Notes: generated by a model not told the origin, from the sequence alone. A stretch of 64,000 bases of DNA from Chitinophagaceae bacterium (GCA_041738795.1 JBGSPB010000015.1:108227-172226), one strand, 5' to 3'; positions 1,335 to 9,968 are shown, numbered from the stretch's first letter. Translations and numbers: made by a program.

Positions 1335-3308
1335 ATGTCAGCAGGTACAGGGGAAAATGAAATGGGATTAAGAAAGATACTTGACTTTACAAGACTTGGC
1401 AGCATTGTAATACTGTTATTGCATTTTTATTATTACTGCTATGGCGTATTCAAGATATGGGGATTAACCGCAGAAATAAGTGACAGGTTCCTGATTAATA
1501 TCAGCAACACGGGGTTGTTTAATTCCATTTTTACTTCCAAATTAATGGCACCGGCCTTATTGGGAATCTCATTATTAGGAAGTCGGGGAAAAAAAGAAGA
1601 AAAGATTAGTAAGCAATCAATTGCTATTTATTTAATTAGCGGGCTTGTGCTATTCCTAACAAGTACATTGCTGCTAAAAATAAACACAGACCTTGAAACA
1701 CTTGGAATAATCTATATGTTAGTTACTGGGGTAGGATTTTTGTTCATTCTTGCCGGTGGTAATTTACTAAGCAGGTTTATTACATTAAATCTCGGAAAAG
1801 ATATTTTCAATGAACTGAATGAAACCTTCCCGCAGGAGGAACGGTTACTGGAGAATGAATACTCAATCAATCTTCCCGCTCAGTACAATCTCAAAGGGAA
1901 ACTTCGCAAAAGCTGGATCAATATTATCAATCCTTTCAGGGGTTTACTCGTTAGTGGTTCACCCGGTTCCGGTAAATCTTACTTCGTGATTCAGCATATC
2001 ATTAAACAGCATATCAAAAAAGGCTTTACTATGCTGGTTTATGATTTTAAATATGACGACCTGACAAAGATTGCCTACAATATTTTATTGAAGAATAAGG
2101 GTAGCTATAAAATCATACCGGCCTTCTATTCTATCAACTTTGATGATCTTTCTAAAAGTAACCGGTGTAATCCTTTGGATGCATCCACTATGTTTGATAT
2201 TACTGATGCTACCGAAGCCTCCCGTTCAATCATGATGGGGCTTAATAAGGATTGGATAACCAAACAGGGTGACTTCTTTGTAGAATCCCCAATCAACTTT
2301 GTAACTGCTATAATCTGGTTCCTTAAAAAATATAACTCTGGTAAATTTTGCACGTTGCCTCATGTCATAGAATTAATGCAGATTGACTATGAAAAATTAT
2401 TTTCGGTACTGAGAACTGAACCCGAAATAGAAGTACTGATTAACCCGTTTATTTCAGCTTACCGGAACAATGCAATGGAACAATTAGAAGGACAGGTGGC
2501 CAGTGCAAAAATTGGTATGGCGAGGTTGTCTTCTCCTCAGCTCTATTGGGTATTATCAGCAAATGATTTTACGCTGGATATTAATAATCCTGATGCTCCT
2601 AAAATAATTTGCCTGGCAAATAATCCGCAGAAGCAACAGATCTATGGTGCTGTACTTTCATTATACATTACAAGGCTGATCAAACTGGTCAACCAAAAGA
2701 ACAGGCTTAAGTCAAGTTTGATCTTTGATGAATTCCCCACCATTTATTTTAATGATATTGATAGCCTGATTGCTACAGCCCGATCAAATAAAGTGGCTAC
2801 CTGTTTGGGTATCCAGGATTTTAGCCAGCTGAAAAAAGATTATGGTGCTGATCAATCTTCTGTTATAATGAATATAACTGGTAACATTATCAGTGGTCAG
2901 GTGACTGGTGAAACATCCAAAGCCCTATCTGAACGGTTCGGGAAAATTAACCAGGTCAAAGAAAGTATATCAATTAACCGGACGGATACATCAATCAGCA
3001 AATCAAGCCAATTAGATTTTGCTATACCGCAATCAAAAATTGCCAATCTTTCTTCTGGTGAATTTGTTGGTATGGTTGCAGATGATCCTACTAATAAAAT
3101 AAAATTAAAGACATTTCATTGTGAAATAATGAACGATCATGTACAATTGAAAAAAGAGGCTGATTCACACAAAGACTTACCCGTAATTTCGAATGTAACC
3201 AGTCAAATGGTGAATTTTAATTTTCGGCGTATAAAAAACGAAATAGCCGACCTGATCGATCAGGAAATTGAAAGGATCTTAAATACTCCTGGGCTTCAAA
3301 CTTTGTGA
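1335..3308 (+). CDS. mobC: Type IV coupling protein (YWFCY-domain MobC/TraG-VirD4 family)
   Basis: LHFYYYCY (YWFCY-like) motif, N-terminal TM helices, Walker A GSPGSGKS, Walker B LIFDEFPT, ATARSNKVATCLGIQDFSQL. Confidence 0.92.
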   Translation: MSAGTGENEMGLRKILDFTRLGSIVILLLHFYYYCYGVFKIWGLTAEISDRFLINISNTGLFNSIFTSKLMAPALLGISLLGSRGKKEEKISKQSIAIYLISGLVLFLTSTLLLKINTDLETLGIIYMLVTGVGFLFILAGGNLLSRFITLNLGKDIFNELNETFPQEERLLENEYSINLPAQYNLKGKLRKSWINIINPFRGLLVSGSPGSGKSYFVIQHIIKQHIKKGFTMLVYDFKYDDLTKIAYNILLKNKGSYKIIPAFYSINFDDLSKSNRCNPLDASTMFDITDATEASRSIMMGLNKDWITKQGDFFVESPINFVTAIIWFLKKYNSGKFCTLPHVIELMQIDYEKLFSVLRTEPEIEVLINPFISAYRNNAMEQLEGQVASAKIGMARLSSPQLYWVLSANDFTLDINNPDAPKIICLANNPQKQQIYGAVLSLYITRLIKLVNQKNRLKSSLIFDEFPTIYFNDIDSLIATARSNKVATCLGIQDFSQLKKDYGADQSSVIMNITGNIISGQVTGETSKALSERFGKINQVKESISINRTDTSISKSSQLDFAIPQSKIANLSSGEFVGMVADDPTNKIKLKTFHCEIMNDHVQLKKEADSHKDLPVISNVTSQMVNFNFRRIKNEIADLIDQEIERILNTPGLQTL

Positions 3309-3333
3309 AATAGAGTCTTTTAATTTATTTCCA

Positions 3334-5484
3334 TTAACCACCAATATGATCCTTTTTAAAATTATCAATAATGTCCCTTTCGAATTTCAATAAATCAAAA
3401 TTAGCATAATCTAATTTTTGTAAAATAATCAAACACTGGTCTAAATCCGCAGCGTTAACAAAACGGTCCTTTATTTTTTCAATTGTTTGGAGCGGTATCC
3501 CAAATTCATTCAACGCAAATAAATCTGGTTCCATTTTTAAATTTTCAACGTTTGACGCATAATTATTAAAATCTCCGACATTATCGATTCCATTTTTTGA
3601 CAATACCTCTTTCTGAATATTATCTAGTGATCGTAATGCTCTAGGAAAAGAAAAGCAAAATACATTTCTAACAATCTTAAGCGAATTTTCTATTATATCA
3701 CTTATATCTCCGCCGCTTGATTCATTTTCAATCCTTGCCTTAAGATATCCGTCAACTCCTTCTGACATCATTAACATTTTGACATGCCTATCCAAGTCGA
3801 TTCCTGACAAAATATTAAAATTTTTCAATCTTGACCCTTCCAAAAAATCGAAAATTAGAATACAAATTTCCCTTAGCTGATCGTTTGTTGGAAAAGATTT
3901 CCAATTGAAACTTTCAGTCAATGTCTCTAAATTATCCTTTAGATAATTTGCGAGATTATATTGTGTCTCAGGAGAATACGCTAAGTTCTGCTTTACTGTC
4001 ACAGTTGACAAAATATCTTCATGAATCGCAATTTTTATTCGACTTTTAGAATCTTCTGATAAATCCACAGTATCCATATGCAGAAGTAAATTAACGGGTG
4101 TATTTGCTCCCTGACTTGCAATAGCAATGTCTACTTGGGATATCTCTTTTGCTGGGGGAGATTCTAAAGAAAATACATTCCCAACGAAATATTGACCCAT
4201 TCGGCCCGCCCGACCTTCTATATTTTTGTAAGTAAAATAATCAAGAAGTCGAGAATTGTTGCGTTTGTCGTAAACGATTACATTTTTTGCTACAGTATTG
4301 ACGCCCTCAATTATTGTTGAGGTGCAAATTAAATACTTTAGCGTCTTATCGTTGAACTTTGAAAGACAATATTGTTGTAAAGCCCTAGGAATACCTCCAT
4401 GATGAATTCCTATTCCATTGCTCAGCGCCTGATAAAAAATCCAATCCTTACTATAGTGTCTATCTATCCATTCAAGAGCATCGGCTATATTAGAAGGAGA
4501 GCCTTTTATTCCTTTTTCCAGCATTAATTTAGCAATTTTGTTGACACTAGCTGGACTTTGGCAATATATTAGGACCGGGTCATTCGCATCAGAACAAATT
4601 TCAATTAATTTATCATCTCTTTCTATATCATTCTTTTTGAAATCAAAGGACGTGATATTAACAGCTACTGTCGAAAATGCGGAGGGTATGAATAGAAACT
4701 CGTATCCCAAACGAGTAAGATTATTCACATAATCAATATTAGGTCCAATTAGAAAGAATTGTTTTGAGCAATGCAGTAATTTATATAAGGCTAAATTCAG
4801 AGCCGTGGCTCGATCATCTTCAGCCATCTTAAAATCTAACTTATAAAATTCATCAATTACAAAAATATCCACATTTTCTAAGTCTGTTCTCTCAATTACT
4901 CTTTCCTGAGTCAATATATAAATATTAAATACGGACTTTTGTTTTACCTGTGAGGGATGAGTAATAATTTTGCATTCTTTATTAAATCTTTTTATAATCC
5001 GGTGCCTAGTCTCATCAATTAGAGCAATTGTTGGAACAACTAAGACCATAGTTTGATATCTCTTTGACGCAATTAGTGCATCAATAATTAGGCTTTTGCC
5101 AACGCTAGTTGAAGCACTAAGCACTATATTCTTTCCATTTAGAATTTCCTGATATATCTTGAATTGCATAGAATAAAAAACAAAACCATCGTCAATGTTT
5201 AGGGGTCTATGCATTTCAAAGGTAAAAGCATCTAGCGCTGACAACTCGTTACTTTCTGGATTAAGATATGGGAACAAGCCAGTTGACCTTATCAACGAGT
5301 AGATTAAATCAAGATGCTCCTGAAATAAATTTCGTTTATCCAATACTCTAATTAAGAGCTCACGTCCTAAGTCTTCATTTTTCTTACTATTAATAAGTAA
5401 TGAAATTTCACGTAAGAGCGTAAAGGAATTTTCCCTGATATAATCGTCATTTTGAAGACTGTTTCTGATCGTCGAGTAAGTCAT
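3334..5484 (-). CDS. hamB: Ski2-like SF2 helicase, Hachiman HamB / AbpB-like
   Basis: Walker A SASTSVGKS, Walker B IDEFYK, GIGIHHGGIP, CTSTIIEGVN, motif VI EGRAGR; starts 3 nt after the HamA-like gene stop. Confidence 0.87.
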   Translation of the reverse strand: MTYSTIRNSLQNDDYIRENSFTLLREISLLINSKKNEDLGRELLIRVLDKRNLFQEHLDLIYSLIRSTGLFPYLNPESNELSALDAFTFEMHRPLNIDDGFVFYSMQFKIYQEILNGKNIVLSASTSVGKSLIIDALIASKRYQTMVLVVPTIALIDETRHRIIKRFNKECKIITHPSQVKQKSVFNIYILTQERVIERTDLENVDIFVIDEFYKLDFKMAEDDRATALNLALYKLLHCSKQFFLIGPNIDYVNNLTRLGYEFLFIPSAFSTVAVNITSFDFKKNDIERDDKLIEICSDANDPVLIYCQSPASVNKIAKLMLEKGIKGSPSNIADALEWIDRHYSKDWIFYQALSNGIGIHHGGIPRALQQYCLSKFNDKTLKYLICTSTIIEGVNTVAKNVIVYDKRNNSRLLDYFTYKNIEGRAGRMGQYFVGNVFSLESPPAKEISQVDIAIASQGANTPVNLLLHMDTVDLSEDSKSRIKIAIHEDILSTVTVKQNLAYSPETQYNLANYLKDNLETLTESFNWKSFPTNDQLREICILIFDFLEGSRLKNFNILSGIDLDRHVKMLMMSEGVDGYLKARIENESSGGDISDIIENSLKIVRNVFCFSFPRALRSLDNIQKEVLSKNGIDNVGDFNNYASNVENLKMEPDLFALNEFGIPLQTIEKIKDRFVNAADLDQCLIILQKLDYANFDLLKFERDIIDNFKKDHIGG

Positions 5485-5487
5485 TTG

Positions 5488-7074
5488 TTAATCTAATAAT
5501 TTATTGAAATTCTCTATTAAAACTTTAGTATCATCAAATGGAAGTAAAAACACATGGACTTTAATTTCTTTTAGAGATTCCGGAAGGCTTTCTAAAAGAA
5601 ACTTGTAGTTAATACCAACTTCAGCTATTAGCTTATATTTATAGTCCTCTATATATCCACTGGTCAGAGTTTTGCTATTGTAAAGTATGAGTACTGGAAG
5701 ACACAGTAGCTTAATAAATTCGTCAATTGAAGTATTTTTAAGTAAAGCGCTTTCTATTGTATTCGGTAAGAGATGTTGACTTTCTTTTAAATCTAATATT
5801 ACTTGTCTCTCATCTTTTAGAAAGTCTAAATCCAAATAATCCTTCATTGTTTCCATAAATACTTTAATACTTTCACTGAAATCATCTAGATATACAATAG
5901 CTGACTTTCCTAACCATAATTCATCTGCACCATTTAGATGAATTATATGTGCATTTGGAAATGATTTTGATTTCTGGTCTTTTGACAGATAGAAGACTTT
6001 ACAAGCAATCGGTTCGCTATTAAAAGTTTGCCGTAAACATATATGAAGGAGAATTTCACTAATTAATTCTTCACCTGCATTTTTTATATGTTTCTTAATT
6101 GCCTTTCTAGCTTTTTCAGAATACTTAAGAAAGTTTGTATGATTAAGAACTGCAACTTCACTAGCTTTCAAGGCAATTTCAGGCAACCAATCAACCATGT
6201 GTTTTGCTAAACCTTCATTTCTCCAATTCTTGTTTTCGAATCCTGCCTCAAGAGCATTTATAGCTTTTCTTAAATCCTTTTGAGTCATCGAATGAAATTC
6301 TATTAAAAAAGGATCGACTCGGTTCTTATAAGGTTTACTATTCCCTGTAGCGGCTATAGTCAGATCGTTAATTTTGTTCTTCCACCAAGTATTTAGTTCA
6401 TTAAACTCTATAATCTTCATTTTAGGCTCAGTAACTTTCGAAGCATTACCGGCTTTATATGCTTTCAGCACAATATCATCATAGATTTTGTCGCTATCAG
6501 TACTGCTAAGATTAACGCCGAATTTTTCTGCTAATTGTAATAATTTCTTTTTATTTGTTACTTCAACACTTAATAATTTCCCAGGAATATCCCATAAAGT
6601 TTTCATTACCCAATATGTAGCATCATTTCCAACGGGGGATTTAAATTTTTTCGACGCACTAAAAATTGATTTCGCCAATTTGTTAACTGCGGTAGTGTCG
6701 CTACGATTATCCCTCGCTTGACTCAACAAAGACAAATTCTTAGTGATATCTCTTGTAGTGACAATTCTAAAGAGAATATCCTGACCAGGTATATTATCGT
6801 AAGAAAAAGACGTTGTATAAATTGAATTCTTAGGAGTAAGGGCGCAAAGTTCCTTAATAGTCCATTTATAATCCCCTTCTGACGTCTTTACCTGAATATA
6901 TTCAGTTATATCCTTCCAGACAACAGTAATATCATCAGTTCTTTCACACTCTACTTGCACAATAGTACCAGATAACATTTCAATTAAGAAAGAGGCTGCA
7001 ATATGATCTTGATATTCAAATCCTTTCCTTGCCGCTACCCCACCAGAATCTGATGGTTTTGATGTCTTTGCCAT
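5488..7074 (-). CDS. hamA: Cap4-like dsDNA nuclease (DUF4297) fused to HamA (DUF1837) domain, AbpA-like
   Basis: N-terminus SDSGGVAARKGFEYQDH..VECERTDD..YIQVKT is a DUF4297 PD-(D/E)XK signature. C-terminus EILLHICLRQ..SEPIACK..HII..DELWLG..IHVFLLP is HamA-like. The layout matches E. coli AbpA/YfjL as I recall it. Confidence 0.8.
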   Translation of the reverse strand: MAKTSKPSDSGGVAARKGFEYQDHIAASFLIEMLSGTIVQVECERTDDITVVWKDITEYIQVKTSEGDYKWTIKELCALTPKNSIYTTSFSYDNIPGQDILFRIVTTRDITKNLSLLSQARDNRSDTTAVNKLAKSIFSASKKFKSPVGNDATYWVMKTLWDIPGKLLSVEVTNKKKLLQLAEKFGVNLSSTDSDKIYDDIVLKAYKAGNASKVTEPKMKIIEFNELNTWWKNKINDLTIAATGNSKPYKNRVDPFLIEFHSMTQKDLRKAINALEAGFENKNWRNEGLAKHMVDWLPEIALKASEVAVLNHTNFLKYSEKARKAIKKHIKNAGEELISEILLHICLRQTFNSEPIACKVFYLSKDQKSKSFPNAHIIHLNGADELWLGKSAIVYLDDFSESIKVFMETMKDYLDLDFLKDERQVILDLKESQHLLPNTIESALLKNTSIDEFIKLLCLPVLILYNSKTLTSGYIEDYKYKLIAEVGINYKFLLESLPESLKEIKVHVFLLPFDDTKVLIENFNKLLD

Positions 7075-7267
7075 TAAAAAAAATGATTTTTTGAGGTATA
7101 TTCCGATATTTCTTCTGACTTTGCAATGAATATAAAACGAAATGTACTTTACATAAGTACCTGAAAAATGAAGTAGACCTTCATAAAATATTCGCTGGAT
7201 TCGCCAAACGGAAGCTCACGGTAGCTAAGCTACATATTTTTAATAGATTAGTTAAATTTTAATGTGA

Positions 7268-8356
7268 TTAGTACACATTATTCTCTAGTAAGTCAAGTAA
7301 TTTTAGTGGGTCAGGTAGTATACCTTTCATCGCTTCAGGCATCACTTTGGATGTTTTAAATGTTGATACCCCTACACCGTTTTCGATGCTTTTAATTGAG
7401 AATTCAACAACAGTATTATTTTTCTCTTTGCACAAAACTATTCCAATACTATTATTTTCGTCCGGCAGCTTTATCTTTTCATCCAGCACATTGAGATAAA
7501 AATTTAATTGTCCTGCATATTCTGGTTTAAATTTTCCTTTCTTCAATTCAAAAGCGACAAGGCACCGTAAGTGTCTGTTGAAGAATAAGAGATCAATAAA
7601 AAATTCATCTCCCGCCAACTCAACACGAAACTGATTCCCAATAAAAGAAAACCCTTTGCCCATGCGAAGAATAAAATCCCTGATGTTGGCGACAATCTTA
7701 TTTTCAACATCCCTTTCATCATCAGTTTCACTTAGGTTCATATAGTCCATAAGATATTCATCATGGAATATTTCCACAGCCTTCGGTTTTAATTCTTCCG
7801 ATAGGGACTTTATAAAATTATTGGGTAGCTTTCCTTGCTTTTCAAATAATTTGTTGGCGATGTGATGTTCAAGAACTGAAACAGACCAAAATTCAATTGA
7901 TGCCTTCATTATATAAAAGAATCGCTCCTCTGATTCTATGCATTTATTCAAAATCGAAATATGGTGAGTAAAGCTGATCCCAAAGAAGTAATCCAATTGC
8001 GCCGTCGCCAACAGCGTATTCTCATTCGCCTGATTTTCAATATTTTGCAATTTGGCAGTCAGTGACTGCCAAATTACGGAGTTTTCGTAGGCAAGATAGA
8101 ACTGGCGCATATTTCTTAAGTTCCGATAAGAAAATCCACGAAGACCCGGTACTTGATTTTGTAAATCTGATGCCACCTGTTCCAGTACGTTATTGCCCCA
8201 TTTCTCACTTTTAATTTTTTGATTAAGCATTTCTCCAACTCGTATATACAATACCAGTTGTTCTTTATTTGCCAGTCTCGCTGCCTGGTAGCGGGATTGA
8301 GAAATACTTTTTTTCAGTTCTTGTATAAATTGTAAATATGATTTTTTTGATTTCAT
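7268..8356 (-). CDS. DUF1016/YhcG family PD-(D/E)XK nuclease-domain protein
   Basis: N-terminal WGNNVLEQVASDL..RGFSYRNLRNMRQFY; C-terminal GFSFIGNQF..FFIDLLFF..LVAFELKKGKFKPEYAGQLNFYL..SIGIVLCK. Confidence 0.9.
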   Translation of the reverse strand: MKSKKSYLQFIQELKKSISQSRYQAARLANKEQLVLYIRVGEMLNQKIKSEKWGNNVLEQVASDLQNQVPGLRGFSYRNLRNMRQFYLAYENSVIWQSLTAKLQNIENQANENTLLATAQLDYFFGISFTHHISILNKCIESEERFFYIMKASIEFWSVSVLEHHIANKLFEKQGKLPNNFIKSLSEELKPKAVEIFHDEYLMDYMNLSETDDERDVENKIVANIRDFILRMGKGFSFIGNQFRVELAGDEFFIDLLFFNRHLRCLVAFELKKGKFKPEYAGQLNFYLNVLDEKIKLPDENNSIGIVLCKEKNNTVVEFSIKSIENGVGVSTFKTSKVMPEAMKGILPDPLKLLDLLENNVY

Positions 8357-8386: not shown

Positions 8387-9637
8387 TTACCCGACCATTT
8401 GTTTTAACCGGTCTCTTTCAGTGAGTTTCGTTCGAAGCATTTTCATATCATCGCTTATTTTTCTTTCAAGGACATGTACATAAACCTGCGTAGTTGAAAG
8501 TTTGGTATGTCCAAGCATCTTACTAACTGTTTCAAGTGGTATTCCGTTATTAAGTGCAATGGTTGTCGCAAAAGTGTGGCGGGCAAGATGGAATGTCATG
8601 TTCTTGGTAATTCCACATAGAGTTCCAATCTCCTTTAAATAATCATTTATTTTTTGATTGGACATATAAGGCAGTGCACTTCCTTGTTTAATCACCAGTG
8701 GATGGGTCTTATACTTGTTAAGTATTGTGAGAGCAGTAGGAAGCAATGGCACACTAACTTTTGTATTTGTTTTTTGCCTTGCTGTTTTAATCCAGTATTC
8801 CCTGTCTATACCAATAATGATATTAGTTTTCTGGAGATTTGCCATATCAGTATAGGCAAGACCAGTATAGCATGCGAAAAGAAAAAGGTCTCTCGTTTTT
8901 TCCAGCTTATCGTTAGGTAGCATTACATTTTCCAATGCATCAATTTCATCTTCGATCAAAAAATCCCTTTCCGTTTTTTGAAAACGTAGTTTATACCTGA
9001 TGAAGGGATCTTTGGGTATCCATTCAAACTTCACACCCATCGTTACAATTTTCCTAAGCCGTTCCATGTGTTTCATTATCCCATTATTGGTAAGGGGATT
9101 ACTCTTATCCAGCGGCTCAGTAGTTCGCAAGAATAACTCAAACTGAGTAATAAACTGGTAACTCAGCTGAGCCAGCAGAATATCATCACATTTGAAACGG
9201 TACTTTAGAAAGCGGCGCAGGTACTTTTCTGTAGCACCATAATTTTTTAAAGTGCCCTGTTTCAAAATCAGGTTTGAATTTGCTGCGTGATAGTGTATCA
9301 GCGACATGAGCGTATTATGAACTTGCTCTTCTCCAACAAACAGGCTCTTAATAACTCCGGCATTGATAAATGTATCCTGCATCTTTAATTGCTGAAAGCA
9401 ATCGTTCAGCTTAAACCTTACTTCATCCAAATAGGGATTGATTCGGCTGATTAAGTCCCTGCTTCCCTCAGCACATTGCCTTTGGCTGTTCCAGCAGGTA
9501 GGATCAATTCCTTTGTTTAAACAAATTTCAGCCCTCTTGTGATTGGCAATGATCCTGGCAAAGATTAATGCCTCGGATGATTTTTTGTCGGTGTGCCTTA
9601 GAATAAAGCACACACGAAAATTGGTAGTACTTTTCAT
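8387..9637 (-). CDS. int: Tyrosine site-specific integrase (Bacteroidota transposon/ICE type)
   Basis: N-terminal arm-binding domain (FILR..IFARII), SAM-like domain, FLFACYTGLAYTD, KTARQKT, HLARHTFAT, LGHTKLSTTQVY. Confidence 0.95.
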   Translation of the reverse strand: MKSTTNFRVCFILRHTDKKSSEALIFARIIANHKRAEICLNKGIDPTCWNSQRQCAEGSRDLISRINPYLDEVRFKLNDCFQQLKMQDTFINAGVIKSLFVGEEQVHNTLMSLIHYHAANSNLILKQGTLKNYGATEKYLRRFLKYRFKCDDILLAQLSYQFITQFELFLRTTEPLDKSNPLTNNGIMKHMERLRKIVTMGVKFEWIPKDPFIRYKLRFQKTERDFLIEDEIDALENVMLPNDKLEKTRDLFLFACYTGLAYTDMANLQKTNIIIGIDREYWIKTARQKTNTKVSVPLLPTALTILNKYKTHPLVIKQGSALPYMSNQKINDYLKEIGTLCGITKNMTFHLARHTFATTIALNNGIPLETVSKMLGHTKLSTTQVYVHVLERKISDDMKMLRTKLTERDRLKQMVG

Positions 9638-9866: not shown

Positions 9867-9894
9867 CATTTGTATAAACTTAGAAAGCTGTATG

Positions 9895-9968
9895 TCGGGA
9901 AGACAGGATTCGAACCTGCGACCCCCTGGTCCCAAACCAGGTGCGCTACCGGCCTGCGCTACTTCCCG
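9895..9968 (-). tRNA. tRNA-Pro (anticodon UGG)
   Basis: Minus strand CGGGAAG..GCGC/GCGC D arm, CCTGG-TTTGGGA-CCAGG anticodon arm, GCAGG-TTCGAAT-CCTGT T arm, CTTCCCG-A; CCA not encoded. Confidence 0.97.

Follow-up and report, generated by a model that had tools for sequence, protein, structure and literature searches.

We analyzed a 64-kb stretch of DNA (referred to here as the window; contig C4, JBGSPB010000015.1, positions 108227 to 172226) from the 4.1-Mb genome (40.5% G+C) of a Chitinophagaceae bacterium (GCA_041738795.1). Coordinates are positions in the window unless they are preceded by the name of a contig or locus. Two adjacent genes near the start of the window, hamA and hamB, very probably make up an intact, AbpAB-like anti-phage system of Hachiman type I-B. 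The pair forms a discrete, approximately 4-kb, low-G+C cargo cassette of an integrative and conjugative element (ICE), in which it lies between the gene for the coupling protein MobC and the genes for a YhcG-family nuclease and an integrase. Direct observations in this DNA comprise the gene architecture, the domain composition, the genomic setting, and which catalytic residues have been kept or lost.

Domain composition and catalytic residues of HamA and HamB

An initial annotation, generated from the sequence alone, had described a Cap4-like nuclease-HamA fusion gene that was translationally coupled, with a 3-nt gap, to the gene for a Ski2-like helicase. Both open reading frames (ORFs) are uninterrupted, and their limits on the minus strand (5488 to 7074 and 3334 to 5484) coincide exactly with the interval that had been assigned to the pair. 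The 3-nt gap is present in the sequence, whereas translational coupling is suggested by this spacing only. The order hamA-hamB, the gene sizes, and the tight spacing are kept in the closest relatives (6 and 2 nt between the genes in the two closest).

In type I-B, as defined for Hachiman by Cui et al. (2025, PMC11914072), HamA combines an N-terminal Cap4 domain with a DUF1837 domain that has lost the (D/E)xK site. Pfam detected the Cap4_nuclease and HamA domains within one protein, the latter (DUF1837) at 111.6 bits (cut-off, 25), in agreement with the fusion proposed initially. Regarding the profile searches that had been suggested as a check on DUF1837 and HamB, both PADLOC models matched end to end, with the HamA model (PDLC00173) spanning the whole 528-aa protein (E = 9.4e-160) and the HamB model (PDLC00180) covering the full 716 aa of the helicase (E = 2.5e-231). 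PADLOC LmuA models also matched HamA, through the N-terminal nuclease that the two families share. The only strong PDB matches of both proteins were the two chains of 8ZUE (Anti-bacteriophage protein A/B), i.e., 8zue_A for HamA (E = 1.3e-41) and 8zue_B for HamB (E = 2.5e-141). In a direct comparison with the Escherichia coli K-12 genes, HamA was 26% identical to AbpA over its whole length, and HamB was 38% identical to AbpB over 701 residues. All of the sequence-level features of the subtype were found, 8ZUE was the best match by both sequence and fold, and the family named in the initial annotation was retained.

We then compared the active sites. The TDD and QVK motifs pointed out earlier are residues 46 to 48 and 61 to 63 of HamA. 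Residues D48, Q61, and K63 align with AbpA D45, Q58, and K60, and they are invariant across 21 type I-B HamAs, as are Q22, D23, E44, and D47; from these alignments, D48, Q61, and K63 are the predicted catalytic residues of the Cap4 domain. Mutants of AbpA D45, Q58, and K60 lose defence (PMC11914072, PMC10732053). For the DUF1837 domain, the type I-A comparison set consisted of ten short, DUF1837-only HamAs drawn from other Bacteroidota genomes and aligned with the 21 long HamAs. A profile search against the PDB did not reach the type I-A HamA 8vx9_A, and the residue mapping was taken from this alignment instead. The motifs G-x-D-x-x-H and G-E-x-K were invariant among the ten short proteins. 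In the column of the catalytic Asp, the HamA described here has N374 and the other long HamAs have N, S, or H, and in the GExK columns it has G389-K390-S391-A392, the Glu being K, R, F, or L in the other long proteins. The loss of the DUF1837 catalytic residues is common to all 21 type I-B sequences. Given that the D and the ExK are replaced, which matches the type I-B definition, we conclude that the C-terminal DUF1837 domain is catalytically degenerate; it is probably a scaffold that binds HamB.

An AlphaFold2 model of HamA as a single chain, computed from an alignment without the E. coli sequence, had a mean predicted local distance difference test (pLDDT) score of 84.3 and a predicted template modeling (pTM) score of 0.57. 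With this model as a query, the top Foldseek match was again 8zue_A (E = 1.8e-28). It was followed, for the N-terminal domain, by Cap4, LmuA, Avs3, and HerA-DUF4297 structures (6vm6, 9nxx, 8dgc, and 9c1m), and the C-terminal domain matched the type I-A HamA 8vx9_A (TMt, 0.58).

HamB carries the Pfam domains DEAD, Helicase_C, and ResIII, and its helicase motifs are intact: motif I (G129-K130-S131), motif II (D211-E212-F-Y, residues 211 to 214), and motif VI (GRAGR, residues 424 to 428). Residues K130, D211, and E212 align with AbpB K128, D208, and E209, residues that both Sasaki et al. (PMC10732053) and Cui et al. (PMC11914072) targeted by mutation. Outside Hachiman, the nearest solved relatives of HamB are the helicase domain of Pol-theta, Hel308, Ski2-type helicases, Mtr4, and Brr2, which makes the label "Ski2-like" a fair one.

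The pair closely resembles AbpA/AbpB (YfjL/YfjK; 8ZUE) of E. coli K-12. The gene order is the same, the proteins are of similar size (528 and 716 aa here; 538 and 729 aa in E. coli), Cap4 and DUF1837 occur together with the D/Q/K residues kept and the DUF1837 site degenerate, and the helicases align over approximately 700 residues that include the conserved motifs I and II. Both pairs also reside on integrated mobile elements with an adjacent integrase and a tRNA-like gene. The E. coli genes differ in having a 4-nt overlap instead of a 3-nt gap, in their enterobacterial rather than Chitinophagaceae-like Bacteroidota host, and in their carrier, which is the cryptic prophage CP4-57 and not an ICE bearing a type IV secretion system (T4SS); CP4-57 also encodes a DUF932 protein, YfjQ. 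With type I-A HamAB (ECOR31; 8VX9), the pair shares the logic of a nuclease and a superfamily 2 (SF2) helicase, the DUF1837 fold, and related RecA cores in HamB. However, the type I-A HamA is a protein of approximately 250 to 330 aa whose DUF1837 is the active nuclease (D...ExK), whereas here this site is lost and the added Cap4 domain holds the active site; HamB is also shorter here (716 aa versus 1174 aa in ECOR31). The fold and the D-QxK motif of the N-terminal nuclease are likewise shared with CBASS Cap4, Lamassu LmuA, Avs3, and HerA-DUF4297. These effectors differ in their sensors (SAVED, SMC-like LmuB, STAND NTPase, and HerA, respectively) and lack both DUF1837 and HamB.

No hamC gene was found at the locus, where the neighbours are the MobC and YhcG genes, and the PADLOC type II arrangement (HamA2-HamB2-HamC) is therefore inapplicable. 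YhcG/DUF1016 was considered as a third Hachiman component and rejected, because it lies beside the integrase in relatives without hamAB, is outside the cassette breakpoints, and has no HamC model among its listed PADLOC matches. The HamC model was absent among the 25 of 26 YhcG PADLOC matches that were listed, all of which were to PDC-S02 or PD_DExK.

The cargo cassette and its conjugative element

The limits of the cassette (Table 1) were set by blastn comparison with the closest related element (L031; identities of 89% for MobC, 75% for YhcG, and 67% for the integrase), with which DNA homology stops at position 3292 and restarts at position 7311. The G+C content decreases from the genome average to 37.4% in the ICE and 32.9% in hamAB. 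Neither hamA nor hamB was present in any of 80 related MobC loci in nucleotide and protein comparisons. Recognisable defence-type genes were found in 5 of the 8 related slots whose genes were scanned. These eight slots contained SIR2-APAZ with a short prokaryotic Argonaute (L085), SIR2-STALD (L069), SIR2 with a large protein that had weak, sub-threshold matches to STAND/AAA NTPases (L078), a type IIG restriction-modification-like pair (L049), a Fic protein (L083), Glyoxalase/DeoC (L031), and proteins without a recognised family (L037 and L038). YhcG, in contrast to this cargo, appears to be a backbone gene of the ICE, because many of the related elements without hamAB also have it next to the integrase or close by.

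The initial annotation had placed the pair on a conjugative element and beside a relaxase. Regarding the latter, the immediate neighbour of hamB is the convergent MobC gene (25-nt gap), and the MobB relaxase gene lies one gene beyond. The conjugative nature of the element was confirmed by the presence of TraG, TraJ, TraK, TraM, TraN, MobB, MobC, and the integrase within a single segment that is bounded by attachment (att) sites at tRNA-Pro. The only TraG/VirB4 of the genome (TraG, 1144 bits) is encoded on the same contig, 62 kb upstream, and next to it are TraJ, TraK, TraM, and TraN, all of which exceeded the curated cut-offs. The sequence GTCGGGAAGACAG is present at both C4:29769-29781 and C4:118120-118132 as a 13-bp direct repeat. 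A same-genus genome (G403) represents the empty site, in which tRNA-Pro runs directly into homologues of C4:27152-29707. Because the 13-bp repeats and this empty site place both ends, the ICE is estimated at approximately 88.4 kb. No long att repeat was detected near the window (blastn-short across the genome; k-mers of at least 11 within 12 kb). We also considered a mobilizable element of approximately 16 kb without a T4SS, which was ruled out by the location of the sole TraG and of TraJ, TraK, TraM, and TraN inside the same att-bounded segment.

Table 1. Features of the hamAB cassette and of the surrounding ICE (positions in the window, or in locus L001 where indicated).
Feature	Position	Strand	Description and evidence
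hamA	5488-7074	-	528 aa, predicted type I-B effector; ORF, Pfam, PADLOC, PDB, Foldseek
Cap4 (DUF4297) PD-(D/E)xK nuclease domain	6469-7047	-	Residues 10-202; Pfam PF14130, E 8.7e-23
DUF1837 (HamA) domain	5536-6210	-	Residues 289-513; Pfam PF08878, E 6.6e-32
hamB	3334-5484	-	716 aa, SF2/Ski2-like helicase, predicted sensor; ORF, Pfam, PADLOC, PDB
hamA-hamB spacer	5485-5487	-	3 nt, TAA-CAA-ATG, read off the sequence
hamA leader/promoter region	7075-7267	-	Contains three short palindromes
Swapped cargo cassette	3293-7310	unstranded	blastn against the closest related element, L031
MobB relaxase	3-1316 (possible ATG start at 48)	+	Pfam Relaxase, E 4.3e-31; NCBIfam Bacteroid_MobB, E 1.4e-86
MobC type IV coupling protein	1335-3308	+	NCBIfam Bacteroid_MobC, 1119.8 bits (cut-off, 900); Pfam YWFCY, T4SS-DNA_transf
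YhcG/DUF1016 PD-(D/E)xK nuclease	7268-8356	-	Pfam; PADLOC candidate PDC-S02, E 8e-121
Tyrosine integrase	8387-9637	-	Pfam Phage_integrase, SAM_5, Arm-DNA-bind_5
tRNA-Pro(TGG), integration target	9894-9968	-	ARAGORN
attR core GTCGGGAAGACAG, 13 bp	9894-9906		3' end of tRNA-Pro
Single-stranded DNA-binding protein (SSB), bacterial type	L001 16609-17094	+	ICE backbone, upstream of relaxase
DUF932 protein	L001 17226-18272	+	ICE backbone, upstream of relaxase

The element resembles the CTnDOT/Bac_Flav_CT ICEs in its TraG/J/K/M/N proteins, MobB and MobC, and tyrosine integrase, and also in its insertion at the 3' end of a tRNA gene with short direct repeats and in its possession of a variable cargo region. 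It differs in the position of its mob module, which a large accessory region keeps approximately 62 kb apart from the tra operon. The nearest MobC relatives were from Chitinophagaceae/Chitinophagales genomes, and the ICE family occurs mainly in Chitinophagaceae metagenome-assembled genomes.

Several other features of the ICE were recorded. Approximately 57 kb of accessory genes lie between the tra operon and the mob module (C4:48-105 kb), including those for SusC/SusD, FecR, an extracytoplasmic function (ECF) sigma factor, MerT-HMA, AraC regulators, thioredoxins, and a lysine/ornithine N-monooxygenase; metabolic and regulatory genes occupy the 13 kb that precede the SSB/DUF932/mob module. The SSB and DUF932 genes (C4:104835-106498) are kept in related elements and resemble a typical leading-region module. 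Just inside the left end of the ICE is the gene for a 1550-aa protein (L004 1729-6381; C4:29955-34607) whose Pfam matches were to AAA ATPase only and which may be a further cargo or defence gene. Directly upstream of traG is the gene for a 401-aa protein with a type A C-terminal sorting domain of the type IX secretion system (L004 18714-19919, minus strand).

Proposed mode of action and alternative explanations

Work on relatives provides a model for the function of the pair. In AbpAB, the DUF1837 and Cap4 domains join HamA to HamB as a heterodimer; the system depends both on the Cap4 residues and on the binding of ATP by HamB, and its degradation of DNA is non-specific (PMC11914072). AbpAB leads to abortive infection, its triggers include T4 gp32 on single-stranded DNA (ssDNA) and DNA-damaging agents but not E. 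coli SSB in vivo, and it lowers lysogenisation and prophage induction (PMC10732053). It needs DNA polymerase I and is restrained by RNase HI (Takita et al. 2026, PMC13689553). Type I-A Hachiman is activated by nicked DNA and by 3' ssDNA entering HamB; in vitro, plasmid DNA is degraded and the ATPase is stimulated by nicked DNA (Tuck et al. 2024, PMC12278908).

If the pair works like its E. coli homologue, HamA and HamB would assemble into a heterodimer, with HamA held to HamB by its degenerate DUF1837 domain and with Cap4 as the sole active nuclease. HamB would be an ATP-dependent SF2 helicase that acts as the sensor, and aberrant DNA would start an ATPase/helicase cycle that licenses the Cap4 nuclease. 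Judging from the relatives, the trigger may be a replication intermediate coated by phage SSB, DNA with damage or nicks, or a 3' single-stranded end. The Cap4 domain would then degrade DNA non-specifically, leading to abortive infection or growth arrest. In this model, complex formation, the trigger, DNA degradation, and the resulting protection from phages are all expected by analogy with the characterised members. As cargo in a variable slot of an ICE, hamAB would spread by conjugation, and it would probably benefit the element through protection of the host.

Several points weigh against a simple transfer of this model to hamAB. The global template modeling (TM) score of the HamA model against 8zue_A was only 0.42, which, together with the pTM score of 0.57, leaves the relative orientation of the domains unconfirmed, although the domain folds themselves are supported. 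Trigger specificity could differ, given that HamA is only 26% identical to AbpA. The published Hachiman mechanisms themselves differ in their details (i.e., HamA is released from HamB, or the complex itself is the nuclease), and in vitro and in vivo studies assign different roles to SSB. The sequencing runs that contained hamAB were all DNA metagenomes or assemblies. To our knowledge, no phages of this host are known.

The carriage of hamAB on an ICE has also been read in another way, the initial annotation having held that a neighbouring relaxase, which makes nicked and ssDNA intermediates, implies some self-tolerance mechanism. It is a fair question to ask, given that type I-A Hachiman is activated in vitro by nicks and 3' ssDNA (PMC12278908). 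Nevertheless, we consider it unlikely that the ICE encodes dedicated self-tolerance, be it repression of hamAB during transfer via palindromes in the hamA leader or the shielding of nicked and ssDNA intermediates by SSB. The leader (193 nt) does contain three short palindromes (ATGAAG-N5-CTTCAT at 7144 to 7160, GTACTT-N5-AAGTAC at 7168 to 7184, and GTAGCT-N-AGCTAC at 7221 to 7233), but a comparison revealed that they are not conserved in the leaders of the two closest relatives of hamA, and hamAB has no neighbouring regulator gene. The palindromes were not returned by the repeat search at the thresholds applied, and the leader contains no ORF of at least 60 aa. A sigma-70 scan of the locus (23 sites versus 18 expected) was uninformative, the Bacteroidota promoter consensus being different. 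Similarly, the ICE-encoded SSB and DUF932 protein just upstream of the relaxase might serve as a shield, but they are backbone proteins that are also found in related elements without hamAB and are thus no adaptation to it; AbpAB, moreover, is not triggered by E. coli SSB in vivo (PMC10732053). Only 4 of 72,556 plasmid records contain a full-length type I-B HamA, a rarity that is compatible with a cost of carriage but, without a baseline, proves nothing. As evidence against a need for self-tolerance, type I-B Hachiman is found on one conjugative and one mobilizable plasmid, coexisting with the MOBQ/MPF_T machinery of the Rhizobium plasmid pR132501 and with the MOBH machinery of the Enterobacter plasmid pAR0468_1, and AbpAB itself resides on an integrase/DUF932 element of E. 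coli K-12. ICE transfer is usually confined to a small minority of cells, and such rarity alone could make any cost negligible. A dedicated self-tolerance mechanism is not required by the data; nothing in our analysis supports it, and it does not follow of necessity from carriage. A more specific version, in which the ICE silences or shields Hachiman during conjugation (by a leader operator or by SSB/DUF932) and in which the same genes act as anti-Hachiman factors in a Hachiman-bearing recipient, is conceivable because a sensor of nicked and ssDNA rides on an element that nicks and unwinds itself; we regard it as improbable.

We assign a similarly low likelihood to the explanation that hamAB mainly serves the ICE, either by attacking incoming plasmids and rival elements or by punishing loss of or damage to the element (addiction). 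Such a role would fit the other anti-invader systems in the slots of related elements, the in vitro degradation of plasmid DNA and the stimulation of the ATPase by nicked DNA (PMC12278908), and the effects of AbpAB on lysogenisation and prophage induction (PMC10732053). However, the characterised members are all defined by phage restriction, we found no published evidence of Hachiman blocking conjugation (which is not mentioned in PMC12278908), and the locus contains no antitoxin-like gene or addiction partner. It is least probable, and to us hardly credible, that the locus is an inactive remnant whose ORFs look intact yet are unexpressed or non-functional. This would be in line with the DNA-only origin of the hamAB-bearing runs and with the low G+C content relative to the host, which marks the genes as foreign and possibly poorly adapted. 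On the other hand, the long ORFs are uninterrupted, all of the catalytic motifs with known essential roles are kept, and copies with about 98 to 99% identity are present in several independent metagenomes. An intact type I-B Hachiman system thus remains our preferred explanation of hamAB.

Relatives, distribution, and significance

The initial annotation had regarded the pair as a divergent Bacteroidota member of the family. We searched a long-HamA profile in two samples of 401 genomes (phylum-wide and family), each including this genome, and in each sample full-length type I-B HamA was detected in this genome only. HamA of any type was detected in 15 of 401 genomes. In a collection of 5.8 billion proteins, the nearest HamA homologue shared 61% identity and the second nearest 48%; the two come from metagenomes, and each is accompanied by a HamB of approximately 711 to 716 aa in a neighbourhood resembling defence or mobile genetic element regions. 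The low identities to AbpA and AbpB, the distance to the nearest homologue, and the lack of a second full-length copy in both samples uphold the description as divergent.

Near-identical hamAB DNA (about 98 to 99%) was recovered from metagenomes of hot springs, biofilms, and biofilters in several studies. Of four runs examined, two (X6 and X9) covered positions 3281 to 7071 of the window but not, at an identity of at least 90%, the flanking MobB/MobC and YhcG/integrase genes. The cassette may therefore sit on other backbones elsewhere, but this is only a hint, because the depth was 2 to 4x, the contigs were tiny, and the junctions were not visible.

Two partial relatives were also recorded. 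A genome of the same family (L119; G795:C4:6096-6836) has a 397-aa open frame that matches the type I-B HamA profile only in the N-terminal Cap4 half (profile positions 5 to 246, E = 2.4e-60); it thus carries a relative of the Hachiman Cap4 domain with a different C terminus. Another locus (L015/L007; G262:C1:2383517-2384299) encodes a short HamA of 285 aa that retains the catalytic D and ExK; its DUF1837 is nearest to the type I-B clade, with which it shares an ELWLG motif. This protein may resemble the type I-B ancestor before the fusion with Cap4.

The hamAB pair is an ordinary member of an already characterised subtype, representing neither a new mechanism nor a new kind of system. It extends characterised type I-B Hachiman into Chitinophagaceae-like Bacteroidota, where the subtype is apparently very rare, and it shows that hamAB travels as a separate cassette, in an ICE position where relatives frequently carry other defence genes. 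As a divergent homologue of the solved complex (26% and 38% identity), the pair is of modest value for comparative biochemistry. Finally, its carriage provides a natural setting in which to ask whether a sensor of DNA integrity hinders the conjugative transfer of its own carrier.

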